The notes below the pieces were generated by a model. That model ran no database searches and had not been told where the DNA came from. It saw only the letters and a program-made list of their open reading frames with translations. The translations under genes were made by a program, and so were the position numbers. From the IMG/VR virus record IMGVR_UViG_3300020050_015720: 64,000 nucleotides of DNA; one strand, 5' to 3'. Below, piece by piece: positions 33,913-64,000 of the stretch (position 1 is its first letter; every line of letters starts with the position of its first letter). The DNA is from a virus (taxonomy: Duplodnaviria > Heunggongvirae > Uroviricota > Caudoviricetes).

Positions 33913-34938
33913 CTAATTAGCAAAGACCTTTAGTGGTATTTGCCCATTATTTTCGTGAATTTCTTTTGGATATACCCATAGGTCATTTTTACTGTACCAT
34001 AGGTAATCATCTAACAATTGATATATTCCTTTGTAGTATTTTCCATCGACGAAACCACCCTCTAATCCACAATTTCTTTCATGCTGAGTGGTTGTATATA
34101 TTAATGCAGGACTTGTGGATGATGTCTTTGTTTCTGCAACAATGAATACAAAATCCTTTATAATGTAACCCTCATCAATATACTGAAGAACAGGACTCTC
34201 TTTTGTCCTTATAGCAAGATCGTAAAGAGCTGCTTGAGTGTAGTAACCAAAAGTTAAGTAACTTTGTGGAAAGTCATAAACAGATTTTCCAGTTGTCTTT
34301 AAGTCAAATGGTTCTATTGTCCTGTTTTTATGGTTTAGTCTTATCCCGTCAAGCAAGGCCTTGAATTCCTGGCCTTCAAGTTCAAAATAGATAGGAACCT
34401 GATGTAATAGTTCCTCTGTTATTCCGGATTTTACAAAATAAGGCTTTGCAAAAGGAGAGGCCAGTATTAACTCTGTCGCTTTAATTGCGGCCTCGTGCTC
34501 GTCTTTTGAGAGCACTGTTATATCCTTAGGATCAGACTGAGTGTAGTAGTACTCAACAGCGTCTGGTGTACTTCAAAACTTTTTTATCACCCAATCTCTA
34601 GACATTTTATATCCAGATGCCCAATAAGCCATCTCATAATCCTCGGCCGGAGAGTCCACTTGTATCCCCTTTGGTAAAGCTTCCACAAAACTTCCCATGA
34701 ATCCATAGGGCTTGTTTATAGTGAGGACCTTGAAACGTTTCTCCCAAGAGGTAGGATCGGTAAGTAAACAGTCAACGGCTGAACCTATTCTCAGTGCTGG
34801 GCTGTTTCACTCATATAGTTCTGGATTATCCCTTTTTAATTTTGCTGCTCTTGGATTTTGAAGGCTTTTTAGCAGACTGTTGGAAATCCTTGGTGATTTG
34901 TAATATTCTTCTATAGGATCTTTGATCTCGTTTTCCAT
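33913..34938 (-). CDS. PD-(D/E)XK family exonuclease (RecB/Cas4-like fold, QxxxY motif), about 341 aa, two in-frame TGA (34573-34575 and 34807-34809)
   Basis: ORF 33913..34515 continues in-frame upstream to an ATG at 34936-34938 if TGA is translated. Motifs: an N-terminal ISNSLLKSL segment, DLK and GYYTQAALY (QxxxY). Confidence 0.7.
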
Positions 34939-36721: not shown

Positions 36722-37099
36722 TTATTGGTAAAGTATCGAATCTACTATGATTCGTTGTGAATAAGGGGTCTCTTCAATTAACATTATGATGGTACTGTCC
36801 GGGCAATCCATCTCATCACAGGTTGTAAAGCACTGTGTTTTAAAGTGTTTCTTCGCTTCTTCTAAGTTCACTGTCTCAATATGGTTTGAAAAACTCATAC
36901 TAATTGAGTCCTTCGCAAATTCTACAATATCTATTCGATATGATTTTGGACTGCTTCTAACCACTTCTTGCAATTCTTCGATGGCTTTGGTTGTTTTCGC
37001 TATTTCAGGTACTAGTGCGGCCACTCCGATAGACAGACCTACGCAGAGGGTAATAATTACCAGGTTCAATTTTTCAAGTCTACTTAAGTTCTTAAGCAT
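36722..37099 (-). CDS. small membrane protein (125 aa)
   Basis: N-terminal hydrophobic segment LVIITLCVGLSIGVAALV. TAA stop. Confidence 0.5.
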   Translation of the reverse strand: MLKNLSRLEKLNLVIITLCVGLSIGVAALVPEIAKTTKAIEELQEVVRSSPKSYRIDIVEFAKDSISMSFSNHIETVNLEEAKKHFKTQCFTTCDEMDCPDSTIIMLIEETPYSQRIIVDSILYQ

Positions 37100-38037
37100 T
37101 TGGATAATAGTTTTTTTATTTTTCTGTTTGTTTGGACAACTCCAAAGTGTTTTTGGTAATCCGAAATATCCTTAAACACTGGATCTAAGTGTATGTTTGG
37201 AAGCTTCAGACGAAGCGATAATTTATTTGCAAACGTCACTCCGGCCGCGTCTCCGTCTAGGAAGATAACGATCTTTTTGAACCGTTTTCTTAGACCCGTT
37301 ATGTACGGAGCAATGGTTTCGTAGGAATCAGAACTAAGACCATACCCTTCCCCGTTTAGGGCCACAGCATTAAAACCATGCTGCTTTAAGACCATTATAT
37401 CCTTTATAGAAGATGTGATAAACAGTAGTTGTCCTCTCTGAGGTAATTGGTACAATCCTCCAATATCTTCCGCTGTGGCATTTCCACCTCATTTCTTTTG
37501 CTTATCAGGGCTGAGTGGTCGGTAAAGTTTTATTCTACCAGAAATGAACTTATAGGCAAAGAGAGGATTTTGTTTACTGCTACGTCCTACAAACGATTCA
37601 TTTTTATAGAGACTCTTTACTATAAAGCAGTATTTTGCTACTATTGTTTTTGGTATTCTGTACCTTTTCCAATAGTGCATACCATCCTCAATATCCCCAG
37701 GAATAAAGGAGAATACAGGTTTCTCGGGTTTATCTTCGACCTCTTGATCTTGGAACAAATGGGCATCCTTTTCAATCTTGGCAATTGCTTCGGAATAAGA
37801 TAGTCCAAATTTTTCTTTAACAAAATCAATTAGCGTATATTTTTTTCCAGTGCCAAAGTCTACAAATAGCGGAGTATTTGAATTTCCAATTCAAAATGAA
37901 CATGTTGGATTCTTGTCTCCTCTTAGCGGATTCTTATAATGTCGACCAAAGACTATTTCTGAATTCAAATAATACCCAAAAGCACCTAGGACACTAATCC
38001 TTTGAAGTATGTTCGTGTGTTCCTTTGCCTTTAGCAT
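37084..38037 (-). CDS. DNA primase (CHC2-like zinc-binding region plus Toprim domain), about 317 aa, two in-frame TGA (37489-37491 and 37891-37893)
   Basis: ORFs 37084..37455 and 37489..37758, plus the upstream region to an ATG at 38035, lie in one frame separated only by TGA. Motifs: KNPLRGDKNPTCSF*IGNSN (zinc-finger-like) and the Toprim motif VIFLDGDAAG. TAA stop. Confidence 0.7.
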
Positions 38038-38377
38038 CTCTATGAATTGTGACTTTTGTGATTGTTTTCGCCTTGTAAACTTCGATTAAATAGCATTCAA
38101 TCTGACTATGTGCATCGAGCCTAAAGGTTTTATTGAAAGCTACGTGTTGACGACTTACGTAACACCGCTCATTTTTTTCGTTGATAAAATCAGCTGAAAA
38201 TTCAGCAACCATAACCTCTTCTAGGAGATCAGGTGAAGAAGCAAGTACTGCCTGCAATTTGGCAAGATGCTTGAAATAGTATTCTAGTGTTAACATAAGA
38301 TAAATAAAAAAAGGGGTAGCAGATTGTAGCCTACTACCCCTAGATTTTAGCTCTGTAAAAACCTCATTTCTACCCAA
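37994..38377 (-). CDS. hypothetical protein (127 aa)
   Basis: Intact ORF with TAG stop. Overlaps the primase start. Confidence 0.45.
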   Translation of the reverse strand: MGRNEVFTELKSRGSRLQSATPFFIYLMLTLEYYFKHLAKLQAVLASSPDLLEEVMVAEFSADFINEKNERCYVSRQHVAFNKTFRLDAHSQIECYLIEVYKAKTITKVTIHRDAKGKGTHEHTSKD

Positions 38378-38414
38378 CCACGCCTAACGGTGGTAATTGT
38401 GATTAGTGAGCTAC

Positions 38415-39005
38415 TTAGACCAATGACTCTAAGTCCTCTGAAGAGGCACTGCCTGCGGCGTTCGACTTGGCAGCACGCTTCATTTCCATTTCGGAGATTG
38501 CCGCATTATCATCCTTTGATAACTTTAGGCCTGTTTCACTCCCTGGGTTGTGCCGCTCTACATACCTTGAGTAAGGCAACTCGGGATACATTTTCTCCTT
38601 ATAGTCTGGAATTACTTTCAGATTAACAGGTACATTTTTATGTGCACCTAAAAGAAGAGCTGCTTTCGCAACAAACTCCTTATAATCTGTAGCCTCGAAG
38701 GTCTCGACGATCTCTGGTCCGAGAAATACTAGCATCAAATCAGTGATTTGACCTAGGTTACGTTTTTGCTCCCTGTTATATGCGTCCTGAATAGTTTCGC
38801 CATCCTTCGGCTTACTACCAGTAGGCATGAACAGCCTTTTGTGGATTGCTCTCCCAGTGGTTGGCTCGGAGAACAGGATATCTGTCCAAGTTTGATCTGT
38901 GACAAGGCCACTGAAAACTACGGTTCCTTCGTGAATTCCTACTGGAATCTTTGTGCCACCTGTGCCGTTGTCACTGTTCAAAAATAGTTTTGCTTGTAAA
39001 CTCAT
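38415..39005 (-). CDS. hypothetical protein (196 aa) with an acidic C-terminal tail, possibly DNA-binding
   Basis: Intact ORF with TAA stop. C-terminus ends ...SASSEDLESLV. No confident family assignment. Confidence 0.5.
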   Translation of the reverse strand: MSLQAKLFLNSDNGTGGTKIPVGIHEGTVVFSGLVTDQTWTDILFSEPTTGRAIHKRLFMPTGSKPKDGETIQDAYNREQKRNLGQITDLMLVFLGPEIVETFEATDYKEFVAKAALLLGAHKNVPVNLKVIPDYKEKMYPELPYSRYVERHNPGSETGLKLSKDDNAAISEMEMKRAAKSNAAGSASSEDLESLV

Positions 39006-39010
39006 TTCGT

Positions 39011-39358
39011 TTAATTTTCTGCTGCAATTACAGCGGTTCGAACATTCTCTAGATTATTTTCAATTTTGCTTGGAAACACGTCCATAACTGAACGAGCTTC
39101 ATTGGTACCATCACTTTTGGTTATCAACTCATAGTTGAAATTACCATCAGCTCCAGCACTTATCTTTGTGTATAAATTATAAGATAGAAAGGCATTCAAG
39201 TTAATCTTTGAAAGCTTCTTTCCATTGACCATAGTACGATAATGGGTAATACCATTTACGTCATAGGCCTCGCAATGCGCTAATACGAATACTACAAAAT
39301 CATCACGCTTAATTTCACGTATTAACTTATATAGATTTCATACTTCTACAGCTAGCAC
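39011..39358 (-). CDS. hypothetical protein with one in-frame TGA (39338-39340); start uncertain
   Basis: ORF 39011..39232 extends upstream in-frame through the TGA. There is no ATG before the TAG at 39401, so GTG at 39356 is a possible start. Confidence 0.35.
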
Positions 39359-39658
39359 TATTCCCCATATTTCTATGGGGCGTGGATCATATCTTCTTTG
39401 CTAAGATTCTGCGCTTATACTAGTATCTTTTAGTGTGTAAACACAATTGCAAAGTCCTGCCATTTCGGGCTTTAAAAGTCGCCCTACTCCCCTTCGGAGG
39501 GATGATCTCTGAACGTTCCCCTGTTCGGGGCTTCGCTGCTGATTGTCCAATTCTATTATTTTTTAACTTATCAAGCTTGCCTTTATTTCAAAGCTACTTT
39601 GTAGTATAATAAACTCTAAGGATATTCCAGCAATTAGACAGGTACCGGACCTAACCTA

Positions 39659-39976
39659 TTGATCCGCCCACTTATCTCTTGAAGGAGATTCTAGGATAGC
39701 CATCTCTTCTGTTGTCATCATAGCATTTATAGTGTCTATAACAATACAGTTGATATCTTGGCGTGTCTCACTAACAGCCTTTACCACTTTATATATTGTT
39801 GTGGGATCGGCCGTCTTCGCGTAGTTTTTATTTTCCGCATTATAAGCGTTCTTTCATCCTTTCCAAGAGAGACCTTTTCCATCCGCATCAATGTAGTAAG
39901 TGCTCTTCGGGTCTAAGAAACGTGCTCCTGTAGTTTTACCTGTTGCAGGTAGTCCTGTTATTTGTACTAAGTTCAT
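39659..39976 (-). CDS. small P-loop NTPase / nucleotide-kinase-like protein (about 105 aa) with one in-frame TGA (39854-39856)
   Basis: Not in the ORF track. Hand translation: MNLVQITGLPATGKTTGARFLDPKSTYYIDADGKGLSWKG*KNAYN...DKWADQ with TAG stop at 39656. Walker A is GLPATGKT. The ATG lies 2 nt after the TAA of the upstream gene. Confidence 0.5.
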
Positions 39977-39978
39977 AA

Positions 39979-40977
39979 TTATAAATCTACTTCTTCTAGT
40001 TTATAGTGTGCAAAATTCTCAGCCAAAGCAATTACCCCAGGCTTTCCGAATCTTTCTTTTATGAGGTGCCAATAGACCATGTGTCTACTAGGCTCCTTTG
40101 GGTATACTAATGGTCAGCCATTTGGAAACTGAGTTCTTGGGGGCCCGTAACCTTTTTCTACACCATTTATGGTTCGCTTCATACCATTTACTGTTATAGG
40201 TCTATGGGACACTAAAACATAGTCTGACGTATGGTAAACAGACGAAGCAGCAAATATGTCATTTCTATTTGGGAAATGGTATAACGGATTTTCTACACGT
40301 TCAACCCGTTCGATATCCCTGTTTAATTGGCCCAAACTAATAATGAGGCAACGTAGGCCTATATGAGCACAATATTTTTTTATATCATTCAAGACATCCA
40401 TCAAAGCATCTACAATCTCTTTCTCGTTGTCACCTGTTCTACCTTTTGTCAAAAGTATGTGGTCAATTGTGATTACTAATCCTAGATTCTTTGAGAGCAA
40501 CTGCCTCTCTGATATAAAGGTTAGAATAGTTTCCTGTATTTGGGATGGTGTGCCAGGATTGTCAACGTAATAAACTGGAACAGAATTTCGCTTCTCTAAC
40601 GCTTTTTCTACCTCATCAAATGCTTCTTTAGACAATGGGCTAGCCGCAGAATACAATTCCTTTATAGTGTACTTTCCTAAAGAAGACACATAACGAGCTA
40701 GCTGATCTTCAATTAGCATCTCAAATTCAAAGGAAAGAATCTCAAAATCAGGTTTATTAAGATCAATAAAATCTTTCTTTAGTTGCTCAAGGATTGTAGA
40801 TTTTCCAGAGCCCGACTGCCCCACAATCGTAAATATTCTTCCTCAGTCAATGCCTCCCATAAGCACAGAGTTCAGTTTAGAAAATGAAGTCTTCAAGGAT
40901 TTTATCTCGCCACTCTGTCTCTTCTTTATGTATTCTAAGGTTGAGTTAACTCCATAACTAATGTGTCTATATTCCAT
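39979..40977 (-). CDS. DnaB-like replicative helicase (RecA-fold C-terminal domain), about 332 aa, two in-frame TGA (40114-40116 and 40843-40845)
   Basis: ORF 40114..40824 starts directly at Walker A (GQSGSGKST). The upstream in-frame extension through TGA reaches an ATG at 40975. Walker B is LVITIDH, and a DnaB-like C-terminal motif (NDIFAASSVYHTSDYVL) is present. Downstream read-through of the TGA at 40114 adds 45 protein-like codons to TAA at 39979. Confidence 0.65.
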
Positions 40978-41534
40978 TATAACAATCCATTATCTTCTTC
41001 TAAAGTATATACAGGAAAAACTATGTTTTCATATTCCTTATCTCTTAACCAATTGACTGAAGCTTTCATGTATTTAAAAGGGTTGGAAAGAGATGGAGAC
41101 TCTTTCTTATTTTTTATCTCTATTTCAAGAGCTTCCTGTAGTTCAGGAGCAGACAGACTATTTAATGCTAACAAATATTGCGCATAGGTTTCCTTTTTGT
41201 TCTGCCTTAATTTTCTTGTTTCTCCAAATCGATCTCACTTATCGGACGCTGGGAAGGTTTTCCAGAACAACTCAAAATCTTCTGTGTAAGTAGCTGTGGC
41301 TTCGTTAGGCAGGAGGGTTAAGTAGCGTGAGAGAAAAACGTGACCAGCATCCAACAAGTGTGTTTCTGTGCAAAGTTTTTGGGAGATTAGATTTTCTATT
41401 ATCAAGTTTTCTTCGATACTCGGTTGTGTTAACTCTCCCGTGCTTAGGTACCACAGCACGAGGTATGATTCGACCGAGATCCTGTCTTCTTTCAATTGCC
41501 TGTATATAGGCAGCGTTAAGGGTAATTGAGACAT
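40977..41534 (-). CDS. hypothetical protein (about 185 aa) upstream of the helicase; possible replisome organiser/loader. One in-frame TGA (41235-41237).
   Basis: ORFs 41235..41534 and 40977..41174 share a frame across the TGA. The joined product reads ...ASDK*DRFGETRKLRQNKKETYAQYLLALNSLSAPELQEALE... Confidence 0.45.
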
Positions 41535-41820
41535 AATTTAAAATATGTTTTGAGTAGTGTATCTGCTTTGTGTCTGCATATTCCTCATTGACTTCTAAGG
41601 ACATTTCTGTGCTATCAAAGTATTCCTGTATCCGCTCCATTAATTGGGTTGCATCCCAAATACATTGAAAATAAGATAAATAAGGAAAGGAATGCAATAG
41701 TAGATGTGACCGCCCCTTTTGAGTGTAACGAATAGAGAAAATAACGCTATAAGAGTCTGCCCAAAAGGTTGTTTGCAGGTCTTTTGTTTTTAGTGTGCCG
41801 GAGAATATTCGTTTTTCCAT
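41305..41820 (-). CDS. hypothetical protein (171 aa) overlapping the previous gene by about 230 nt in another frame
   Basis: Standard ORF from ATG at 41818 to TAA at 41305. The long overlap suggests either a frameshift (real or error) or an overlapping gene. Confidence 0.35.
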   Translation of the reverse strand: MEKRIFSGTLKTKDLQTTFWADSYSVIFSIRYTQKGRSHLLLHSFPYLSYFQCIWDATQLMERIQEYFDSTEMSLEVNEEYADTKQIHYSKHILNYVSITLNAAYIQAIERRQDLGRIIPRAVVPKHGRVNTTEYRRKLDNRKSNLPKTLHRNTLVGCWSRFSLTLLNPPA

Positions 41821-42122
41821 TATTCTGTAGTAGGGTATGTTCCACTAGAGCTGCTACACATAAAGATAGCTTCACAATCTTGTTCTTGAAATAATCTGTA
41901 CAGCGCCCTTATACTTGATTTTAGAAGTACGTGGTAGTCATAGGAACGCTGACCTTCAAAAGCTATTGTTTCACCAGCAAAGTAATATAAGGTAATTGAA
42001 GCACGAAATAATTCCTCCTCTTCTTCTATCTCTACTAATCCGCCAATCTTTCCATAGGCGTTTCTATAGTGCATGACCATCCGAAAGTATTCATTGGGAA
42101 TTTTATTGTTTGTCTTCAGCAT
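41820..42122 (-). CDS. hypothetical protein (about 100 aa)
   Basis: ATG at 42120-42122 and TAA at 41820. Confidence 0.45.
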   Translation of the reverse strand: MLKTNNKIPNEYFRMVMHYRNAYGKIGGLVEIEEEEELFRASITLYYFAGETIAFEGQRSYDYHVLLKSSIRALYRLFQEQDCEAIFMCSSSSGTYPTTE

Positions 42123-42351
42123 ATGCAAGGGCTTTTTCGATTAGATCAAACAAAGATAACATAGGCCCAAAGGTTTTACTATGATAATACGAATTATTTT
42201 TATTCCGTAAAGAGAGTTTTGCTCCGTAACGCTGTAGCCCGTCTGCGGCCCTAGTCCTGGTTTTATACAGAGACAATTTCGCATATACTTCACCATGCGC
42301 CTTTGTTAGCTCTATCTGGGCTAAAAATCTATGAGATTTGTCCGTCGGCAT
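42103..42351 (-). CDS. hypothetical protein (82 aa)
   Basis: Intact ORF from ATG to TAA. Confidence 0.45.
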   Translation of the reverse strand: MPTDKSHRFLAQIELTKAHGEVYAKLSLYKTRTRAADGLQRYGAKLSLRNKNNSYYHSKTFGPMLSLFDLIEKALAYAEDKQ

Positions 42352-42553
42352 AGCTATGAAATTTTCTTATGACGTCGAGTAAAGTAGTGTGCATGTTATG
42401 GGTTACCACTAATTTTTGGCGCTCCAGCACACGATCGTTCTGTAATATGATATAATATAAGTGAATCTCTTTCCCACTAGACTCAAATATATGCAACTTT
42501 AAATCAAAATTTCCAGAAGAGTGTATCCCTTTATACATCAAGGTTCCCATCAA
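42329..42553 (-). CDS. hypothetical protein (74 aa)
   Basis: Intact ORF with TAG stop. Confidence 0.4.
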   Translation of the reverse strand: MMGTLMYKGIHSSGNFDLKLHIFESSGKEIHLYYIILQNDRVLERQKLVVTHNMHTTLLDVIRKFHSYADGQIS

Positions 42554-43700
42554 TTAAACTGGTTGAAGGTAAAAGAGCAAAAAGTTCTTGCTTGGCTATT
42601 TCTGGCGACACGTTTTCTCTTACAGAAAGAACCTTTGAGTCCCCAGTTGACCAATATACCAGGGTAAATTTTCCAGTATCGTCCTTATAAAAGCGTAGGG
42701 TGTGTGCCTCGAGTTTCATAACTAACGGTGGATATCCCCCACCATATTTTGAACAGCATTCACAAATGTAATTACTGTCCGTGTCGAAATACTGTGCCAC
42801 TACATATTCTGGAATCAATGTAAGATCAATAAGAATGTACTGTCCACAAGATTCACATATCTCTTCCTTATGACGAATAACCGCTGTATTAGCTTCAAAA
42901 TTATCAGTACGCGCCTTATATAGTTGGCGCATATCGTGTCCAGCATAATGGAGTTTTCGTGAATCACTTGTTAACAGATCATACGTGCAAGCTCCACACA
43001 TATGCTTAAATAAGGTACCATTTTGCGTCCTAACTTCGTCTTCAAAGTTTGTAATCAAATAGTTTCCATCGCAAACAGGACAAATAGCTACTTCTGTAAA
43101 TGTTTCTACGTAGTCCTCGATAGTTCCTACTCTGAATTGCTTCAATTCATCCTCAATGAGTTTTACACAAGACAAGCATATAAGCACCTTACCACCATCA
43201 AGCCAATTTTGAGTGGCTCCCATAGGAGTATCTATCTCGTGACAAAACTCCTTCGTGTAAGGATCAGATACATTTATACGTTGTTGCACCTTACAGAAAA
43301 TACAAGCTAATTTTTTTTCCTTTGCGTTTGGCTCAATCTCCTCATTTAGGTGTTGATAATGCTCATAAGTGTGGTCAGGGAAAACCCCCTGCGACACAAA
43401 TGTTTGTATGTCATTAAACAGACCTATGGTTTTCGTATTTGTGCCACTTCTTAGTTTTGCTTCGATTTTATTATCACAATCATCACAGATAAATACTCCT
43501 GGAACACGTTCTGGTGTTTCACCACCACCTAAAGGGTAATGAAATAAAGGAATATAAGTATGCTGATTTAAACAAAAAACACATTGCTCTTCACAAGCCT
43601 GACCTACTCGGTGTTCGTCGAGTTGGCTCGGAAGCAATGCTCCCCTCATCCTTATATACTGCGTAAGCCGGTTTGCACCTCGGCCAAATGGTTTAGCCAT
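42531..43700 (-). CDS. Cys-rich multi-zinc-ribbon protein (389 aa)
   Basis: At least eight CxxC pairs are spread across the protein (CEEQC, CDDC, CIFC, CLSC, CPVC, CGAC, CESC, CECC). ATG and TAA are intact. Confidence 0.6.
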   Translation of the reverse strand: MAKPFGRGANRLTQYIRMRGALLPSQLDEHRVGQACEEQCVFCLNQHTYIPLFHYPLGGGETPERVPGVFICDDCDNKIEAKLRSGTNTKTIGLFNDIQTFVSQGVFPDHTYEHYQHLNEEIEPNAKEKKLACIFCKVQQRINVSDPYTKEFCHEIDTPMGATQNWLDGGKVLICLSCVKLIEDELKQFRVGTIEDYVETFTEVAICPVCDGNYLITNFEDEVRTQNGTLFKHMCGACTYDLLTSDSRKLHYAGHDMRQLYKARTDNFEANTAVIRHKEEICESCGQYILIDLTLIPEYVVAQYFDTDSNYICECCSKYGGGYPPLVMKLEAHTLRFYKDDTGKFTLVYWSTGDSKVLSVRENVSPEIAKQELFALLPSTSLIDGNLDV

Positions 43701-45538: not shown

Positions 45539-46636
45539 TTACATCTTTTTTGCTGCTTTAGGCAGAGTTAAGCCGCCCTTAGTCCATTTAGTAACCAAGG
45601 CTTGAAATTGAGTACGTAAACCAGCCTTAGCTTGAGGAGACGAGTTTCTTGCTGATTCATATTTCACGAGCAAATCCATAGCTTCCGCTAAGTTAGCAAC
45701 CGTATTTTGTTGGGTGCTTTTGTCATGAATATACGGAAACAGTTTCTCAGAAAATGAAGCAACAACATCTTTATCAAGTTCAGCATAAGTCAACAGTTTA
45801 CCTATCAAATCTTTTGCTTTCCTTGCTTCTTCAGTTATGTCATCTTTTGGCTTCTTGTCCTTTGCGTCATCTTTTGCTTTTGAATCCTTAGCGGGTGCAT
45901 CAACAACCAAATCAAATAAGTTGCCTAGCAAAGCATGATTTACACCTTTATGGGTTAGAGCCAGCATTAATACCGTTAGGATTTCCCAGAAGGTAATTAG
46001 GATGTGAAAGGCTGTCAAACCTAATGAAGTCACCATACCCGTTTTAAGGGAATCATATGGGGCATAGTTAGCCGGAAGCTTATTCAACGCTATCACATAG
46101 TCTAAGTACGCTTGAGGTTTAAATCCCAAACCAACTTGAAAACTTGCCCACCATACTTCAAGTTGAACTCCCTGATGAAGAGCATTTGTCATAGCCATAA
46201 GATTGTAGATAGGCGATCCAATGGTCAAAACCAAACTTACACCACTCAGCATAAAAGTTGTGCTAGCCAAGCCCAGCCAAATGCCTAGGGGTCTTTTTGT
46301 TGTTATTACGGATATGAAACTTCCAAAGTATTTTGTCATGGCGAAGGCACCAAAAGCGCCTACCATTGCCATTGCTATGTGACTGCCCATACGAGCAGCT
46401 ACGTTCATGTTTTCTTCTTGAACTGAACCCAGGAGAGCTGCTTCTGCAAGCATAGCTGAAGCCTGGAAAACAATAAAGTATGTCAGAGAATATTTAATAA
46501 AGGAACGAACAAGAATTACTCCTGGTTCAAGCCCCGCATTTTCAGGATCTTTTTTTGCTTTTTGATATCCAAAGTAGCTTACGACGCCAAGTAATCCGGC
46601 GACCATAATGTAAATAAACGTGGCTTCTAATGTCAT
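45539..46636 (-). CDS. polytopic inner-membrane protein (365 aa)
   Basis: Several hydrophobic helices and a Lys/Asp-rich loop. ATG at 46634, TAA at 45539. Confidence 0.6.
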   Translation of the reverse strand: MTLEATFIYIMVAGLLGVVSYFGYQKAKKDPENAGLEPGVILVRSFIKYSLTYFIVFQASAMLAEAALLGSVQEENMNVAARMGSHIAMAMVGAFGAFAMTKYFGSFISVITTKRPLGIWLGLASTTFMLSGVSLVLTIGSPIYNLMAMTNALHQGVQLEVWWASFQVGLGFKPQAYLDYVIALNKLPANYAPYDSLKTGMVTSLGLTAFHILITFWEILTVLMLALTHKGVNHALLGNLFDLVVDAPAKDSKAKDDAKDKKPKDDITEEARKAKDLIGKLLTYAELDKDVVASFSEKLFPYIHDKSTQQNTVANLAEAMDLLVKYESARNSSPQAKAGLRTQFQALVTKWTKGGLTLPKAAKKM

Positions 46637-46644
46637 TATTTTTT

Positions 46645-48522
46645 TCAGTGTGTACTATCTTCCGCAACAGCGGGAACAGCTATGGTTAAGAATTTGTTAA
46701 CAGCCTCGCTGCAAGAGCGCTCTAGCGCTAAACTTACAGCCTTTTTCTTCCACTCTGCACATTCCACTACATATTCATCGTGCGCAAATATCACAATATC
46801 GAATCCAATCTTTTTTGAGCGTTGCCTTAAATATATTCCGGCTTGCTTTGCTACGTCAGCAGCAGTAGCTTGGATCGGTATGTTCTGTGCCCAACGTTGA
46901 ATTTTTGCCTCTAACATTCTACAATCTCGTACCACATGTGGATGTGGTTCCCAACCTCTCCGTGTAAAGGTCTCTATATGGGCCTTCATGGTTTTATACT
47001 TATCAAAGAAAGGAATATAACTTCTTCTCTTAGTTAATTCGTTTGCCACTATGTACCCATTCTCTTTTGCGAGTTGCCCTTGTCTATCGAAATAGGGTCT
47101 TAGCTTTGGAAATCCCTTATAAACCTTCTCTATCAGCTCTTTTCCTCGTTTCAAAGGAATCCTATACTTTTCGTAAAGTGTTCCAGCACCACCCCCATAG
47201 GCAATACTGAAGTTAATATTCTTAGCTAACCTTCGTTCTTCTGAATCCTTCTGTAAGGTTGGATCTTCAAAGGCCAATCTGGCGGTCGCTAAGTGGTAGT
47301 CTCCATCATTATCAAAGGCAGCTCTAAAGTTTACATCTCCACATTTATCAGCTAGAATTCTTGCTTCAATGTTTGAGAAGTCGGCCCCAACAAATACATT
47401 TCCCTCTTCAGCTTGGAAAGCGGAGCGGTAAATTGCGCCGCGCTTTATATTCTGGATATTCGGATTTGTAGAGGATGTCCTACCCGTACGCATTATCTGC
47501 ATAAAAGAAGAATGAACCCTATTGGATATGGGATTTACATGCTTTAAAAACATTTCCCCATATACAGACGACTCTTTCGCGGACTCCTTATAAGATAGGT
47601 AACTACCAATTATGGGATCTTTCTTTATCTGCTTTTCTAATACTTGTCTAGCAACAGATTCCTTTATCGCGCCCGTCTTTTTGTCTATGATGGATGTGTC
47701 CACCCCGAAAGACTGCATTATTGGTAGAACTTGTCTCCAACTATTTCAGTTTACGGGGGCATAAGCAGAAAGCATTTCTCTAAGCTTTTCAGTAGCAAGC
47801 AATGTTTGACGATAATTGTCTAACCATTGCTTCTGATTTAGAAACACACCAACTAATTCCATATCTCCCAGAACCTTCAAATATTCATTTTCTAACTCGA
47901 TTGTCGCTTCGAGATTATCCTTGGTTATTTGTACTTGTTGAGCCAGATATGTTCTGTATGTGGCCTCAACGTCGAGAGCCGCATATAATAATTGAGCTAA
48001 GCTAAACGGGGTGTCACCTTGTTTTGTAAATGATTTTTGTAGCTCTTTTGTTATCGTAGGGAGAAATAAATTCCCTTGGCTACTATAAAAATCTATGCCA
48101 ACGCGCCTATGAGAAACTTGGGCTAGTCCATACCAGCCTTTTCGTATGCCCTCAAAACTTCCGCAGTCCAAGACTTGCTCTGCTAGCATAGTATCAAATA
48201 CATCACTCAGTTCCACCCCATAGTTCTGCTTTATGACCTGGTAATCATACTTCAGGTTGTGCCCAATAATGGGTCTTTTTATTATTTCTTTTAGGAGCTT
48301 GGTGGGATCTTTTACACGTGTGTCAATAAGATACTGCACATGCGCATTTCCGAACTGTAGTAATACTACCTTTTGAGCTAAGATGTTATCTAATCCTCCG
48401 GTAGTCTCGGTGTCTAGAGCAATAGGGCCAGTTCATTCCCGTATTGCCTTAGTAATATCTAGCCCTGAGCAAGGAGAGATTTTACTATCTCTCACGACTC
48501 ACATAGACGGCCGTATATCCAT
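46645..48522 (-). CDS. polA: family A DNA polymerase with 3'-5' exonuclease domain (about 625 aa), three in-frame TGA (47746-47748, 48433-48435, 48499-48501)
   Basis: Exo I motif (ALDTETTGG) appears only after read-through of the TGA at 48433. Exo III motif is YAALD. Polymerase motifs are A (GADFSNIEARILA), B (RRLAKNINFSIAYG) and C (VIFAHDEYVV). The exo and pol ORFs (47746..48339 and 46645..47718) are in the same frame and separated by a single TGA. The protein ends in His at TGA 46645. Confidence 0.8.
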
Positions 48523-49706
48523 TTTTCGTTCTTTTTATGCCTGTTTGAACTAGTTCTCCAGCACTTGGTTCCCCAGAAGGTGCTTTTTTTTCTTGTACCG
48601 TGGTTACGGGTTCTTGTGTCAATGTTTTTAGAGACCGGACAATCTTTGGAAAGTTATCAACGGTTCTCGTTACGATGGCCCCAATAAGAGCCGAAAAGAT
48701 TACAGTTATCATAAGTTGGAATTAGGGAGAAGTATTACCCTCTCCCAATCCCGTTAAATATTCATGTGGATGTGGTCACCCGTTGCGTTCTTATTAAAGA
48801 AGCAATATTGTGCTGCTTGAGGATGATCTAGGTACTTTCGGACCTTTTTACTTCCTGGAGCCCCTTCAATATAAAGGGTAATATCGTGTTCGGTTAACCA
48901 TCTTGTACCTTCTTCTGATATCAAAAAAGCAATTAACTCTTCATCTCAAGCTAAATCAATAGCCTTGCCGTGATAGTGGCGAGACGATGAGTCATTGTAT
49001 CTTTTTACACTTGTTACCTTAGCTTTTGGCCCAGAATATGTTGAAAGTACGTAAGCAAAATCTTTACTTATGGTTGTATCAACAGGGGTGTAAAGTAGAA
49101 ATCCAAAGAAGTTGCCTTGCGTACAAAGGCCTGTTTTCCGATTCTTTCACTTACGCGATTGATACGGATGGGTTTCTCTCAATCGAATTATTTCTTCCTG
49201 TAAGGAATCGACTTTTTGAGAAAGAGAATCAGCCCGCACAGTTTGTATGGTTTGCTCTGTTTTTAAAATCTCGATTTGTGTGTTATTTTTCACAAACAAA
49301 AATCCACAGAGACTCATAAAACCAATTATAGCAAGGCTTTTAAGTATTGTTTCCAAAATAAATATATTAATGTGAAAAGACCGGTCACTTAGAGGTTCCG
49401 GGTAGTAGCCTATTTAGTAGCAAAGCCGCAAAGCTTTGTCTAAACACCTCAATTCGGCTCTTTGAAGAGTTAAGTTGTTGTGTTCCATAGGATCAAACAA
49501 CTCGTAATAAACCTCTTCAGATGGAGACAAGTCCCCAATAATCTTACCATTAGAGATAATGGCTTTTTTAAAAAAGAGGGCCTTTCCTAGCCTATTACTA
49601 GACCATTTAAGTCCTTCTATTGTATACGAAACATTCAGAGGCTGTTTGTCTTTGACTCTTCTAAGTACTCAGAAGCGGTCTCTAACATATGCCGCTAGCG
49701 ATTTGT

Positions 49707-50261: not shown

Positions 50262-50822
50262 TTACGCAACGCTTTTTTATAGGCTTCAGATCGATTTGCG
50301 TCATATACGACACATAACCCCAAAGTTGCCTGGTGTAATTCTACCCGATGAATGATCTTGCGATTACAGACGATAGTCTCGGATATGCGGATTCGCAAGG
50401 TACTCGAGAGCTTGTCGACGAATTCGCCGTATGTCCTCCAACCTTGGTTTTGGTACGGGAATGGAATATCTTTCCACTCGGTAATGGATGGGAGACCCAA
50501 TTTCACGATGGCCTTTTCGCTTATTTCCATTCTTGACTTGTTTTCTGAGGAGTTTTAGTTTGTACAGATCTTTGGTGTATAGATCAGTGGCACAAATTAA
50601 GGCCAATTTTTCTTTTGTAGAGAGTTGAATAGAAAAATTCTTTCTCGTCTTGTTGTTGTAAACACTATCAAGCAATTGGTTGTAGGCTTGTTTCTCAAGA
50701 CGTGTCATCTCTCTCTTACTTCTCCTTTGCTTCTCTTCAGGGGTCCCCGAGTAATAGTCCTCTATTCCTTCTGGGTCTGGGTAACGCCAGCGGACATACT
50801 GAGCCATAGCTATTCGCTTCAT
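50204..50822 (-). CDS. hypothetical gene region where two overlapping frames (50364..50822 and 50204..50530) suggest a frameshift
   Basis: Two protein-like ORFs overlap by 167 nt in different frames. The junction is unresolved. Confidence 0.3.
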
Positions 50823-54068: not shown

Positions 54069-54569
54069 TTAATTTAGGTCGCGAGCAATAATAGCTCGTA
54101 ATTTCGTCGTGTAAAGAGGATCTTCAGCATATCTACAACCCTTGCAGTGTGGCAAGTGATCTAGTAACCATAAGTAATCATCCTCTGTCTCGATTTTGTA
54201 TTTTTTACGAGCCAAACGGAGAATCATTTTTTGGTACTTCAAGTATTCTGCCAAAGACAGTGCTGCATTTTTGTAAGCCGAATGCCCTGCGCGCACCTCT
54301 GTAGAATAGGTCCTATCTTTTCTCTTCTTCATACCAAAAACATTTTTATTATGTTGGTAAATATCAGAAGTAAAAGAACCTGTTTCTAGGATCATCTGAC
54401 TTATCACTACTCTTGGGAATTCAAATCCTTGGGACTCCATTTTTCTAAAGAGATTCTCCCAACTTGTTTCGCCATAAGCACTGAATTGTGCAGGCTCTTC
54501 ACTAGTTCTTCCAAAAAGTAAAATGGCGGCGAGAAAAACTAGCCCCACTCGAAATACGAACTTGAGCAT
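54069..54569 (-). CDS. secreted glucosaminidase-domain protein (peptidoglycan hydrolase family, 166 aa)
   Basis: Signal peptide followed by SQMILETGSFTSDIYQHNKNVFGMK, which resembles the mannosyl-glycoprotein endo-beta-N-acetylglucosaminidase / FlgJ-type motif. Confidence 0.55.
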   Translation of the reverse strand: MLKFVFRVGLVFLAAILLFGRTSEEPAQFSAYGETSWENLFRKMESQGFEFPRVVISQMILETGSFTSDIYQHNKNVFGMKKRKDRTYSTEVRAGHSAYKNAALSLAEYLKYQKMILRLARKKYKIETEDDYLWLLDHLPHCKGCRYAEDPLYTTKLRAIIARDLN

Positions 54570-56544: not shown

Positions 56545-57675
56545 TCATGTTATAGATTTATACATGGTATAATCCCCGCCACTAGCTTTACAAAGAACAC
56601 TCAAGTCTTTGTTGAATTCACCCAAACTTAATGCATGAACTGGAGCAGCGGGTTTCATTTCTCCAGGGGGATCCTCACCATCATTTATTATGAGTATGCG
56701 TGTGTCCACAGGAACTTTAAAGGTTCCAAACATTCCTTTTTGCAAATCAGTAATGACTTTGGGTAGTATGTGATTTAGATAAGTGTTTCCACCAGAACCA
56801 TCTGTCACAATTTTTTTAAACTCATTAACGCTATGGGCATTTTTTAGTTCAAAGGCCGGACCAAGTGAATACTCAAATGGAGCGATTAATAACCTTAAGC
56901 TTTCTTTTTCAACCTCTTTAAATAGCGACTCTAAAATAGCAGTTAGTTTTGGCACACGTGTGTCAGCACTCATAGAGCCAGAATCATCTAACAAAATAAC
57001 CATTGTTTTGAGATCTTGTTTTGAGCGCAGAGGAAATTTACCAATCAATTGTCTTTGAGCAAGCATTAACTCAAACACGTCGTCATCAACACACAGCTGT
57101 TTAGGGATTACGCGAGCAATCTCCTCTAGTCTGCGGATTCTTCTAAAGTGAACGGCACTCTTGGGTTTACCCTCAACTTTTTTACTATTCGTTTGTTGTT
57201 TAGCAAACACCATGGCTCCACTTTGCTTGATGTATTCTGGAACCTCGTCTACAGCGCCAAAAGGAAGAGAATAACCCTGAAAAAAGTTTCTGATACTTTC
57301 TCCACCCTTATGTCCCCCAGGAAGCATCATTTCTTTTTCAGCTTCGGCTTCCTCAATGGCCTCTTTTACAGCTTTTTCAAATTCTTCTTGAGAAGAATCT
57401 TTATGCTGCTTTATCATATACTGTTCTGCAAGAACTCTTGCTAGTGTATAGACATCTCCTTTTACCTTACTTCCAGCAATAGCCATATCGAGTGCCATGC
57501 TTTTCGTAGACTTCCCACCGCTTACCTGCATTGCTACTGAATATGGATCATTATCCATTGTTAAATGACTCGCAACAGCAGCTGCCGTGGTCAGATAACC
57601 TGTGGAAATGTAATGGTTGGCCTTTTCTGCAGCTTTTTTTAGGAGCTCAGGATCTAGGTTATAAGCTTGGTTCAT
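56545..57675 (-). CDS. von Willebrand factor A (VWA) domain protein (376 aa), partner of the upstream MoxR-like ATPase
   Basis: MIDAS motif DxSxS (VILLDDSGSMSADTR) with downstream T and D ligands. Its ATG overlaps the stop of the AAA gene (ATGA). Confidence 0.7.
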   Translation of the reverse strand: MNQAYNLDPELLKKAAEKANHYISTGYLTTAAAVASHLTMDNDPYSVAMQVSGGKSTKSMALDMAIAGSKVKGDVYTLARVLAEQYMIKQHKDSSQEEFEKAVKEAIEEAEAEKEMMLPGGHKGGESIRNFFQGYSLPFGAVDEVPEYIKQSGAMVFAKQQTNSKKVEGKPKSAVHFRRIRRLEEIARVIPKQLCVDDDVFELMLAQRQLIGKFPLRSKQDLKTMVILLDDSGSMSADTRVPKLTAILESLFKEVEKESLRLLIAPFEYSLGPAFELKNAHSVNEFKKIVTDGSGGNTYLNHILPKVITDLQKGMFGTFKVPVDTRILIINDGEDPPGEMKPAAPVHALSLGEFNKDLSVLCKASGGDYTMYKSIT

Positions 57676-58709
57676 AATTTTGGGATTTCTGTTGCATTTG
57701 CAACTTTTTGAACGTGGTCCTTTAACAGCTGTGAAAGATTCATGGCTGTATTTCGCATACGGTCAGTGTAGACACCCGTTGTTGGGATCCCCTTTATGTT
57801 TTCAAGAGCGCTCTTAGCCTTTCCAAAATGAGCAATAAAATTTGGATCGTTTCGTTCGAAGGCAAATTTTGCTTGAAGAGCTAGACTTTCGGCTTCTTCC
57901 AAGTCTCTTACAAAAGGAACCAAAGCCATCATCTTCTTTAGCTCCTCATACACTTCTGGCTTCTCATGCATGTCATCGAAAGTCTCAACACCACTTAAAC
58001 CTTCAAACTTGATAAGGTCTTGGAAGGCTAGCGCTTCCCTCGGTGCCATTGGGTAATTCATTTGATGGCATTTTTCAAGCATAGCCGCCACAAGTTTGTC
58101 AGGTCGACCTAAATGGGTTAAATAAGCATCCCAGGTGGTAATGTCATACTTGCTCCATTCTACATGAGCTCTGTGTGGAAAACGTTTCAAAAGCGCTTTG
58201 TAACTGTCGACCTCACCCGCCCATTCAACTGGATTGTGATTTGTGCAGATGAACATCGACTGTAATTTTACTGGGGAACAAACATTGTTGATGCAAAGTA
58301 CTTTTGACATCAATGGCTGCTTCATGGTTTCGAGCACGTACGGGGGAGCGTCCAAGCCTTCCTCCAATATGGCGTACTCCTTCTCCATATATATCGTATG
58401 CTCCAATTGGTAGTTGATAGTACCGTCTTCTCGGTACCGTTTCAAGTCCAAGGCACCAACAAAGGGTTCTGTAGGCATTTCCATGCCGCCGTTTGTCTGG
58501 TACACCTGCTGGTAGAACGCAACCTCACCCAAATAGAGTTTCAGGGCCGTTTCGACAATACCAGATTTTGCATGGCCAGGTGGACCATACAGAATACAGT
58601 TTTGTTTTAGTGCCAAGGCACGTATGACCGCATTTATGGCAGGGTCACTTTGGAAGTACCTCTGCTGTAATTCAGCTTTCACTTCCGTTAATTCCATGTT
58701 TATCTTCAT
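57672..58709 (-). CDS. MoxR-like AAA+ ATPase (345 aa)
   Basis: Walker A ILYGPPGHAKSG, a Walker B/DExx-like region (AILEEGLDAPP), and FICTNHNP, which resembles the MoxR 'ATQNP' sensor motif. Confidence 0.7.
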   Translation of the reverse strand: MKINMELTEVKAELQQRYFQSDPAINAVIRALALKQNCILYGPPGHAKSGIVETALKLYLGEVAFYQQVYQTNGGMEMPTEPFVGALDLKRYREDGTINYQLEHTIYMEKEYAILEEGLDAPPYVLETMKQPLMSKVLCINNVCSPVKLQSMFICTNHNPVEWAGEVDSYKALLKRFPHRAHVEWSKYDITTWDAYLTHLGRPDKLVAAMLEKCHQMNYPMAPREALAFQDLIKFEGLSGVETFDDMHEKPEVYEELKKMMALVPFVRDLEEAESLALQAKFAFERNDPNFIAHFGKAKSALENIKGIPTTGVYTDRMRNTAMNLSQLLKDHVQKVANATEIPKL

Positions 58710-58723
58710 GTTTTAAAATTTAG

Positions 58724-58789
58724 GGGTGTGGGACGGATTCGAACCTTCTATAAGTATATAATACCTATAATCACCATTAGAACCACACC
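58724..58789 (-). tRNA. tRNA-like element (about 66 nt) with canonical T-arm and acceptor stem but a compressed D/anticodon region
   Basis: Minus strand reads GGTGTGG...GAAGG TTCGAAT CCGTC CCACACC C. The acceptor halves are perfectly complementary. The middle 32 nt are AT-rich, and the only 5-bp stem I could place gives an anticodon loop ATTATAT (UAU?). No UCA anticodon is present. Confidence 0.35.
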
Positions 58790-58808
58790 TTAGGGGGATT
58801 TTGTAAGC

Positions 58809-59612
58809 CTAATCATACTTAGTTAGGTTATACCGTTTGATTACACTAATTAGTGTATTAGCATAACTTTTATCCGTTGCATAACCTACTTGCTTTAATC
58901 CTTGGGCCCAACGAACGTAGTCGCGTCCGTATTTCTTTAATTTTGCATATCGTCCCGATGACAACAGCTTTGAATGGGCTTCCCAGCTTTGTGCAGGAGA
59001 TTTGAACTTCAAAAAGAAGTCTTTGTGGGTATCGTCCTTATGATTGGTACAATGCCCCTTACCACACTTTTTTGAAAAACACTTCATGCCAAAATGATTG
59101 TTGTTTTGCACCGCTAATTTACTAGTTCCTGCTCTCGATTCAATCAGACCTTGTGCTAAACTGATACTTGCGGGTACTCCATGTTTTCTCCAACCAGCCT
59201 GTGCCGCAGCTTTGTACTTCTGAATATACGCCTGCGCCTGCGTTTTGTAAGCGGTTAAATTCTTTGCCGGAGCTGGTTCTGGTGGATTTTCATCCAGAGT
59301 TTCTTTCTCTCCTACAAATACCGAAGTTTGCGGAATTTCGGGTACAATCTCTTCTTCTGCGTCAGCCTTCTCACTTGAAGCTTGAACGACAGGTACAATG
59401 ATTGTTTTTGGTGGGTTGGTATTTATACTCACCCAAGCACCTATGGTCATAGCGCACATAAGGGTTAATCCAAGGAACACGCCAACGTTGGCCTTTTGAA
59501 TGCCCGACAATCTTTGAAAGATTGCAACAGTAGCATACAACCAATGGACAAACGTCGGTACTGCCTTTTCTTCGGTTGATTTCGACGACGTAATTTTGAT
59601 AATTTGTTTCAT
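58809..59612 (-). CDS. membrane-anchored glucosaminidase-family peptidoglycan hydrolase (267 aa)
   Basis: N-terminal TM segment, an Ala/Pro-rich linker, and a C-terminal domain with LAQGLIESRAGTSKLAVQNNNHFGMK plus a Cys/His cluster. TAG stop. Confidence 0.65.
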   Translation of the reverse strand: MKQIIKITSSKSTEEKAVPTFVHWLYATVAIFQRLSGIQKANVGVFLGLTLMCAMTIGAWVSINTNPPKTIIVPVVQASSEKADAEEEIVPEIPQTSVFVGEKETLDENPPEPAPAKNLTAYKTQAQAYIQKYKAAAQAGWRKHGVPASISLAQGLIESRAGTSKLAVQNNNHFGMKCFSKKCGKGHCTNHKDDTHKDFFLKFKSPAQSWEAHSKLLSSGRYAKLKKYGRDYVRWAQGLKQVGYATDKSYANTLISVIKRYNLTKYD

Positions 59613-63661: not shown

Positions 63662-63698
63662 AAAGAAAAAGAGGCCCTATCATTGCGACAGAGCCTCT
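63662..63698 (-). terminator. candidate intrinsic terminator (minus strand)
   Basis: A 6-bp stem (AGAGGC / GCCTCT) with a 17-nt loop. On the minus strand it is followed by TTTTTCTTTG. Confidence 0.5.
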
Positions 63699-63940: not shown

Positions 63941-64000
63941 ATCATGTTTCGTTAAAGGTTAAAGAAAAATCCTGGGCAAGTTTCCCTACCCAGGAAGTGT

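Follow-up and report, generated by a model that had tools for sequence, protein, structure and literature searches.

A conserved tRNA-like element between two genes of a crAss-like phage and its relation to a family of phage minihelices

In a 64,000-nt stretch of DNA from a tailed virus (Caudoviricetes; IMG/VR record IMGVR_UViG_3300020050_015720), hereafter called the window, a tRNA-like element of 66 nt lies at positions 58724-58789 on the minus strand. The carrier is a crAss-like phage: it has crAss tail-ring and cargo-protein domains, the plus strand has an open reading frame (ORF) of 4095 aa, and a replication module is encoded on the minus strand. The element lies between two minus-strand genes and takes up the greater part of the 99 nt that separate them, in one of the few non-coding gaps of the window. 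The upstream gene (58809-59612) encodes a peptidoglycan hydrolase with a glucosaminidase domain (Pfam PF01832, E = 1e-31), and its TAG stop codon is 19 nt before the element; the downstream gene (57672-58709) encodes a bpMoxR AAA+ ATPase (Pfam PF20030 and PF07728), its ATG is 14 nt after C58724, and a gene for a VWA protein follows. A second, shorter ORF with a glucosaminidase domain (54069-54569, minus strand; PF01832, E = 5e-14) is found ∼4 kb downstream of the first. The initial annotation, made from the letters of the window, had described a compressed tRNA-like element here, and this description holds: coordinates and sequence are exact, and the acceptor-like stem, the T-arm with a T-loop sequence and the GG of the linker are all present.

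Read from its 5′-end, the element starts with the 5′ strand of an outer, acceptor-like stem, GGTGTGG (58783-58789), which pairs perfectly with the 3′ strand CCACACC (58725-58731), all 7 bp being Watson-Crick. Next comes the linker TTCTAATGGTGAT (58770-58782), in which AATGGT holds the conserved motif A-Y-G-G-U, followed by an AT-rich hairpin, TATAGGTATTATATACTTATA or TATAGGTAT-TAT-ATACTTATA (58749-58769), which is an insertion in the linker, is paired in the minimum free energy (MFE) fold and had been taken for an anticodon arm. The T-arm mimic GAAGG-TTCGAAT-CCGTC (58732-58748) has a 5-bp stem with one A.G mismatch and a 7-nt T-loop-like loop; the 3′ strand of the outer stem directly abuts it, giving a stack of 7 + 5 = 12 bp. 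The unpaired 3′ tail C-CTAA (58720-58724) consists of a discriminator-like base at 58724 and a conserved CUAA, with no CCA encoded, and a CCCCCT run lies just 5′ of the element (58792-58797). The acceptor-like strand is separated from the T-arm by 34 nt, in agreement with the 32 nt given before once positions 8-9 are set aside. Both the 11-nt T-arm core GGTTCGAATCC and the AT-rich hairpin sequence occur only once in the window.

ARAGORN found no tRNA and no tmRNA in the whole window, and an Rfam search of the window gave no tRNA at the gathering threshold. Thus the earlier statement that the window holds no visible suppressor tRNA is confirmed, and neither detector supports a tRNA at the element itself. 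The Rfam tRNA model RF00005 aligns with the element from end to end, at 17.6 bits versus a gathering score of 29 (E = 0.39 in 301 nt). The part of the tRNA geometry that is present comprises the perfect 7-bp GGTGTGG/CCACACC on GAAGG/CCGTC with its single A.G mismatch, and the loop TTCGAAT of the UUCRANY type; for the D-arm, at most three stem pairs can be formed, and the variable region has 0-2 nt. A loose descriptor of acceptor stem plus T-arm matched four sites in the window, versus a mean of 2.8 in shuffled windows, hence the shape in a single sequence does not exceed chance.

Comparison with related phages is more informative on this point. The MoxR protein has only six relatives among 5.8 billion proteins, and their contigs, together with contigs found through the glucosaminidase, make up ∼15 related phage loci with shared gene order. 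The identical element is present in two independent JGI assemblies. At locus L001, where the DNA is 97% identical to the window, the same element carries two substitutions (2/66 positions differ): one, A to G, preserves a pair of the inserted hairpin as U.G instead of U-A, and the other turns the T-stem mismatch A.G into A.A. The MoxR proteins of loci L002 and L003 share ∼50% identity with that of the window and 65% with one another. Immediately past the stop codon of the glucosaminidase gene, L003 has TGGTGTG-ATGGTCTTTA-GGGGAGG-CTCGAAT-CCTCCCC-GCACCA-CTAAC and L002 has AGTGTG-ATGGTCGCA-GGGGAGG-TTCGACT-CCTCCCC-ACACT-TCTAAC. In both, an outer stem and a T-like hairpin, joined by a linker with A-Y-G-G-U, stack to 12-13 bp, and there is no anticodon arm.

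Alignment of the intergenic region of the window gave z = 9.0 with L003 and z = 7.6 with L002, scores that 0/500 shuffles reached, versus z ∼1.5 for the same alignment with relatives that have only a hairpin; all aligned regions sit between the glucosaminidase stop and the following ATG. The window, L002 and L003 share the blocks CCCCCT, GTGTG, ATGGT, GG-YTCGAMT-CC, CACAC and CTAA, among which CCCCCT, ATGGT and the CTAA after the stem are invariant when L001 is added. In the outer stem of the orthologs a G-C pair is replaced by A-U in a double change and a U-A pair by U.G; in the T-stem, an A-U pair has become G-C in L002 and L003, and the loop reads YTCGAMT in all orthologs. As MAFFT misaligned the expanded and the short forms, this covariation was read by hand. 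The AT-rich hairpin was found only in the window, L339, L340 and L001, and is absent from L002 and L003. Since the anticodon arm is missing from the conserved elements of L002 and L003, the part under selection is the acceptor/T-arm minihelix and not the anticodon. On account of its conservation, in two JGI assemblies, in L001 and in homologs at ∼50% protein identity, we regard the element as real. It is thus genuine and conserved but probably not a working tRNA, and most likely it decodes neither TGA nor anything else and is no att core.

The remaining relatives have a plain GC-rich purine/pyrimidine hairpin at this site, with no T-loop sequence. A run of five C recurs in the loops or 3′ arms of such plain hairpins in distant relatives (L004, ∼2966-2971; L209, ∼2322-2326), and CCCCCT could pair alternatively with AGGGG of the T-stem in L002 and L003, not in the window. 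Just 3′ of the element, L001 has an extra 103-aa ORF (250-561) inserted exactly at the MoxR start, which corresponds to ∼58709 in the window, and L002 has an unrelated 116-aa ORF (2637-2987) at the same place; neither the window nor L003 has an ORF there. Related phage contigs with the same glucosaminidase gene, L005 (284-298) and L145 (360-376), contain isolated T-arm-like hairpins, (G)GGTTCGACTCC(C); no outer stem can be recognised around these and ARAGORN does not call them, and they may be other degenerate tRNA-like elements. An INPHARED nucleotide search with the 4-kb neighbourhood had no match, and in IMG/VR neither a search with the single MoxR protein nor one for the exact 21-mer returned anything. 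The IMG/VR pattern CCCCCT..GTGTG..GGYTCGAMTCC gave only the known L002 phage and one true tRNA-Arg, and genuine tRNA-Gln genes prevail among the listed matches of a metagenome scan with CCCCCT...ATGGT...GGYTCGAMTCC.

The short form of the element is not confined to these relatives. IMG/VR was scanned for ATGGT followed after 3-12 nt by GGYTCGAMTCC, a spacing too short for a real tRNA, and at least 120 loci were obtained; among the matches listed, 133 in number, 69 were genuine tRNAs and ∼30 of the other 64 had the architecture of L002 and L003. A member of this family has ∼45 nt, with an outer stem of 5-8 bp, a linker of ∼10 nt reading (R)ATGGT(C)NNAG, a hairpin of 5-7 bp with the loop TTCGACT or TTCGAAT (UUCGACU or UUCGAAU in RNA), and an outer 3′ strand that abuts the hairpin. 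CTAAC or TTAAC also trails the stem in AT-rich members. An outer stem of 5 bp or more adjoined the T-stem in 25% of those pattern hits whose T-stem itself reached 5 bp, and in 6.6% when the flank was shuffled.

A covariance model, R1, found copies that the pattern does not require, several of them with ACGGT instead of ATGGT. At L290, L218, L292, L326 and L320 it found second copies one gene away, in which the outer stem is the same and the T-stem is different but fully compensated. Pattern scan and model searches together gave 33 hits at E <= 1e-6. In these, the T-stem is 93.5% paired, a figure biased upward by the seeding pattern, which forces ATGGT and the loop, and by the choice of candidates for their stems; both-side changes occur in 6/7 T-stem pairs and 6/6 outer-stem pairs, and the outer helix is under-counted owing to register shifts by one base in the alignment. 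The covariation score was 0.66 versus 0.17 in shuffles (0/500), and it collapses when the pairing partners are slid. A(T/C)GGT is invariant or nearly so in an alignment of 27 family sequences, the linker has 10-11 nt in most copies, and the two stems add up to 11-13 bp in 35/36 copies measured, with a mode of 12, the length of the tRNA acceptor/T limb. With a second model, R2, built without L002 and L003, these two loci scored 57.4 bits (E = 2e-14) and 45.6 bits (E = 6e-11), respectively, both at full length. High scores in a model that had not seen them make these positional orthologs of the window element bona fide members of the family.

A short upstream ORF starting at the ATG of ATGGT was considered and rejected: the frame in which the T-loop is read differs between L002 and L003, the frame of the window stops in the hairpin, and ACGGT replaces ATGGT in other copies. 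The minihelix corresponds to no Rfam 15 family: ten loci gave nothing at gathering thresholds, and at E <= 10 a local match to the T-arm of tmRNA (11 bits) was all that they returned. The literature searched held no description of the family, its coverage being partial and therefore no proof of novelty; among the matches to GGTTCGACTCC in the literature are att sites of phages within tRNA genes. The family is large and apparently undescribed. On a 130-kb viral contig (L234, 1490-2409), eight pattern matches stand in tandem with a period of ∼125 nt, each matching R1 weakly (22.5 bits), and may form a tRNA-like repeat array.

Model searches revealed ∼35 further copies in phages of Mycobacterium, Gordonia, Streptomyces and Bacteroides and in uncultured viral contigs. 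Cultured carriers were identified in BLAST searches that used two members of 50 nt as queries: the Mycobacterium phages HINdeR, SWU2, Journey13, Sheen and Konstantine with its relatives, the Gordonia phages Morgana, VanLee and MakoManhole among others, the Streptomyces phages Dagobah and Endor1, Corynebacterium phage StAB and Bacteroides phage BF1-TP2. Nearly all of the listed records give 'none' as the annotation at the matched positions. In the five records examined (HINdeR, Konstantine, Morgana, Dagobah and BF1-TP2), the flanking genes are co-directional, the copy shares their strand, and the gap between them carries no annotation; these gaps are mostly ∼80-100 nt, two being wider (∼180 and ∼250 nt). 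The stretch L337 of Konstantine (38351-43381) has three full copies within 2.2 kb, at its positions 1734-1783, 2493-2542 and 3809-3857, which follow gp48, gp50 and gp53 (∼40.08-42.2 kb of the phage). The copy of HINdeR is at 50,602-50,645 and that of BF1-TP2 at 872-921. The cultured, published phages (L334, L335, L336, L337 and L338) have one to three copies each, in unannotated gaps between small early genes, and Konstantine and Dagobah have several further gaps of ∼90 nt.

All cases checked lie between co-directional genes, and several loci have two or three copies. For 21 metagenomic copies, the nearest upstream stop ranges from 4 nt inside the element to 50 nt before it, and the next start is mostly 14-60 nt downstream. 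Overall, copies start between at most 4 nt inside the upstream stop codon and ∼50 nt past it, except for ∼115 nt in Bacteroides phage BF1-TP2, and end ∼15-60 nt before the next start, except for three copies (-4, 76 and 167 nt). The window element fits this placement: it follows the glucosaminidase stop by 19 nt and precedes the MoxR ATG by 14 nt, and element and genes are all on the minus strand.

The relation of the window copy itself to the family is less direct. R1 matched its T-loop part alone (10.1 bits, E ∼1), and R2 misses the window-type copies in L001 and L339, the latter identical to that of the window. The window departs from the family in 6 extra bases before ATGG, a 21-nt AT-rich hairpin in the linker, which thereby has 34 nt instead of ∼10, stems split 7/5 instead of 5-6/6-7, and a mismatched T-stem; we ascribe the failure of the family model to these insertions, the 7/5 stem arrangement and the mismatch. 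No further copy was found in the window by exact motif, hairpin sequence, descriptor or R1 with filters off. Shared with the family are the 12-bp stack with contiguous 3′ strands, the loop YUCGAMU, A-Y-G-G-U, the tail and the placement, and the syntenic alignment to L003 and L002 (z = 9.0 and 7.6) connects the window element with accepted members. Judged by position and sequence, the window element is therefore best described as a diverged, expanded ortholog of the family and not as a demonstrated member. This connection by orthology to a large family had been overlooked in the initial annotation.

We give even chances to the reading that the element is a transcribed, cis-encoded tRNA mimic which acts as an RNA processing signal for RNase P and RNase Z. 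From the observed sequence, conservation, covariation, placement and strand, we infer the following course of transcription, cleavage and its consequence. The element would be co-transcribed with the flanking glucosaminidase and MoxR genes, and its acceptor/T-arm limb would be read by the tRNA-maturation enzymes of the host: RNase P would act on its 5′ side, and RNase Z or an equivalent enzyme on its 3′ side. The cuts would split the polycistronic RNA between the glucosaminidase and MoxR cistrons, uncouple the stability and translation of the neighbouring genes, and free a small tRNA-like RNA. In the lineage of the window, insertion of a 21-nt AT-rich hairpin and 6 bases in the linker would have led to the likeness to a whole compressed tRNA. 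Bacterial RNase P needs no more than an acceptor/T-arm minihelix as its substrate, and the same limb is read by RNase Z and by the CCA-adding enzyme. The geometry that RNase P and RNase Z signals require, a 12-bp acceptor/T limb with a T-loop, is present in the window. Moreover, the hosts of the carriers are as unlike as Actinobacteria and Bacteroidota, implying a universal host partner.

Several observations speak against processing, or against the part of the window copy in it. Some family members have an outer stem that extends into the upstream stop codon, where cleavage by RNase P would leave a non-stop mRNA; this sits awkwardly with simple punctuation. CCA is not encoded in the element. 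The MFE fold of the window element favours a ∼10-bp hairpin with a 3-nt loop in which the T-arm is not formed, and folding energies are not significant (z = -1.1 for the window element, -1.1 to -1.6 overall). Divergence from L001 equals that expected from the 97% genome-wide identity, so no extra constraint is visible on that timescale, and the upward bias of the pairing percentages mentioned above must also be counted here. Furthermore, the T-arm of the window may descend from a generic intergenic hairpin. Given the failed models (17.6 bits for tRNA, 10.1 bits for R1), the mismatched T-stem and an MFE fold without the T-arm, the window copy could be a decaying derivative.

The competing explanation that survives best, though in our judgement an unlikely one, is a cis-acting RNA structure left uncut by tRNA enzymes, such as a stabiliser of mRNA 3′- or 5′-ends, an element for translational coupling or insulation between cistrons, or a terminator or antiterminator of atypical form, which would have arisen from the GC hairpin of this site and whose likeness to tRNA would be incidental or reflect a compact fold. 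The T-loop is a general RNA structural motif, and ∼15 related contigs have a plain hairpin GGGAGG...CCTCCC exactly here, with the shared flanks CCCC-ACAx-T-TAAC-ATG. The position of the element, always right after a stop and shortly before a start, with the stem overlapping the stop codon in some cases, would suit such a function as well. However, a generic hairpin leaves the invariant YUCGAMU loop and the A-Y-G-G-U linker unexplained, and likewise the gapless outer stem and the 12-bp total across phages of unrelated hosts. As a terminator the element lacks a U-run, although the phage has canonical terminators elsewhere, and a terminator scan listed none at this place. Two strong ones elsewhere in the window, at 63670-63698 and 63970-63995 (minus strand, that of the genes), have 11-13-bp stems followed by T-runs.

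Somewhat less likely still, we think, is that the released minihelix is itself the functional product, a trans-acting tRNA mimic produced in quantity from early operons that titrates or misdirects host factors; this is compatible with processing, which would then be its biogenesis. Candidate targets are defence toxins that modify or cleave the acceptor ends of tRNAs, the CCA-adding enzyme, EF-Tu and modification enzymes. Phage-encoded tRNAs that counter tRNA-targeting defences of the host are established. Consistent with a decoy, there are multiple copies per genome in early-type regions rich in small genes, selection acts on tRNA-specific features and not on just any helix, and the 3′ tail often starts with A-C, like a discriminator base and C74. 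But CCA is not encoded, no protein gene is associated with the element, the only copy in the window is degenerate, and a decoy would not need the strict placement between cistrons.

The element might also be a non-functional relic, a decaying phage tRNA gene or minihelix kept because little time has passed or because the gap needs spacing, which we consider improbable. Features expected of a relic are found in the window copy: it fails both covariance models, its mismatched T-stem differs again in L001 (A.G versus A.A), there is an AT-rich insertion, and the divergence from L001 is that of the genome as a whole. Against this, the perfect 7-bp outer stem, the exact 11-nt T-loop core, ATGGT and CTAA are retained in comparison with relatives at ∼50% protein identity (z = 7.6 and 9.0), where neutral DNA would be randomised, and the change of L001 inside the inserted hairpin preserves the pair. 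A degenerate tRNA, one of the possibilities named originally, thus remains conceivable as the origin of the element, and its conservation argues against junk.

A working reduced tRNA-Ile, with a D-stem of 3 bp or none and the anticodon UAU reading AUA, had been another of the original suggestions, and we hold it to be very improbable. The loop AUUAUAU, with U33 and A37, can be drawn on a 5-bp stem, as can the 3-bp D-stem of the fold first proposed, and there are a 7-bp acceptor stem, a 5-bp T-arm and an end-to-end alignment with the Rfam tRNA model; however, the MFE fold prefers its ∼10-bp hairpin with a loop of 3 nt, the variable region is only 0-2 nt, the T-stem is mismatched, ARAGORN is negative, and 17.6 bits fall short of 29. 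Above all, the orthologs of L002 and L003 are conserved without any anticodon arm. Least credible is a tRNA-derived attP core or other DNA-level recombination site, also among the first proposals: T-arm/acceptor segments are classic att cores, e.g. that of P22 in thrW (PMC8022706), and gene content right 3′ of the element varies (103-aa ORF in L001, 116-aa ORF in L002, none in the window and L003), but the 21-nt T-arm/acceptor 3′-end of the window occurs in no bacterial tRNA (one genome each of 185,579 species), there is no integrase among the ORFs scanned, the 5′ acceptor strand, not needed in an attP core, is present, covariation keeps pairing and not sequence, orientation always follows transcription, and other phages carry two or three copies of related elements per locus. 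In the same species genomes, the pattern GGTTCGAATCCNNNCCACACC matched only tRNA-Asp, -Cys, -Phe and others with different T-stems, and no phage integrated with this sequence at its junctions was seen.

Known tRNA-shaped RNAs place the putative processing signal in context. Like tRNA (RF00005), the element has a 7-bp acceptor-type stem on a 5-bp T-stem, a UUCGAAU T-loop, a GG segment at the place of the D-loop and one unpaired base after the stem; unlike tRNA, it scores below threshold, has no ARAGORN call, no proper D-stem, a variable region of 0-2 nt and no conserved anticodon arm. mascRNA, at the 3′-end of MALAT1 and of MEN-beta, and the t-elements of plant mitochondria are tRNA-shaped modules in longer RNAs that are recognised by RNase P and RNase Z to set the ends of neighbouring RNAs. 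They are the closest counterpart to the probable working of the element, and the anticodon is irrelevant in them. They are, however, eukaryotic nuclear or organellar and mostly cloverleaf, whereas the phage element has a bacterial host, its common form is an acceptor/T limb with a 10-nt linker, and its cleavage is putative.

The tRNA-like domain of tmRNA (RF00023) shares the acceptor stem, the T-arm, a reduced D-loop and the lack of an anticodon. The phage element differs from tmRNA in that it has no mRNA-like domain, pseudoknots, G3:U70 or encoded CCA, in its length of 45-66 nt versus ∼360 nt, and in its location inside operons; its third pair is U-A, its tail is C-CUAA, the insert is a 21-nt hairpin, and ARAGORN finds no tmRNA. 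The C4 antisense RNA of P1 and P7 and the CI RNA of P4 are phage-encoded substrates of host RNase P that are not tRNAs; like mascRNA and the t-elements, they are near to the proposed mechanism. They differ as antisense regulators with their own sequence families (c4 is in Rfam), and no similarity of these RNAs to the minihelix was found. YrlA, a bacterial Y-RNA, is a non-coding RNA with a domain that mimics the acceptor/T/D region of tRNA and is also found in phage, but it exceeds 100 nt, has a Ro60-binding helix and is encoded next to rsr (PMC4201824). There is no Ro60 gene among the ORFs scanned in the window, and no Rfam hit was obtained.

A further question concerns TGA codons, for which the initial annotation had sought a decoder. 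In-frame TGA codons are present in apparently intact early frames on the minus strand (46636-48534, 39979-40989, 37084-38085, 33913-34938 and 48754-49413). The genes concerned include PolA, at the junction of exonuclease and polymerase, a DnaB-like helicase (39979-40989), a Toprim primase with two TGAs and a PD-(D/E)XK DUF3799 protein; frame 48754-49413 has two in-frame TGAs, and a Pfam search gave it no family. Pfam domains run across the TGA in PolA, the DnaB-like helicase and the PD-(D/E)XK protein, which makes the premise of recoding plausible, and the large plus-strand virion genes have no in-frame TGA. This suggests that TGA serves as a sense codon in part of the genes. The element itself is excluded as the decoder, as had been supposed, since its sequence contains no TCA, and it drops off the list of candidate decoders for the apparently recoded codons. 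ARAGORN found no tRNA in the 10 kb upstream of the glucosaminidase gene either (L339, reaching ∼5.6 kb beyond the right end of the window). The TGA decoder must lie elsewhere in the genome or in the host. Beside the DnaB-like helicase frame, in the replication module, a group I intron is found at 39363-39691 on the minus strand, with a match over the full length of the model (Rfam RF00028, 64.4 bits versus a threshold of 50).

Beyond the locus itself, a broader reading is possible, which we advance only tentatively: an undescribed class of anticodon-less tRNA mimics may punctuate early operons in phages of very different hosts and be excised by the tRNA-maturation machinery of the host, as a bacterial-virus counterpart of mitochondrial tRNA punctuation. 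On this same tentative footing, the window would represent a lineage in which the minihelix has re-grown an arm and is nearing the shape of a whole tRNA. The excised minihelices might also be decoys for defence systems or enzymes that recognise the acceptor/T-arm limb. If such punctuation is true, many phages, among them the well-studied SEA-PHAGES actinobacteriophages, Bacteroides phages and crAss-like phages, would have their polycistronic early transcripts cut at dedicated tRNA-shaped signals by RNase P and RNase Z of the host. This would account for the gaps of ∼80-100 nt that recur without annotation between small early genes. A structured-RNA family would then be missing from Rfam, and annotators would gain a feature that tRNA finders overlook. 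It would also raise the question of whether excised tRNA mimics interfere with tRNA-directed defences of the host.

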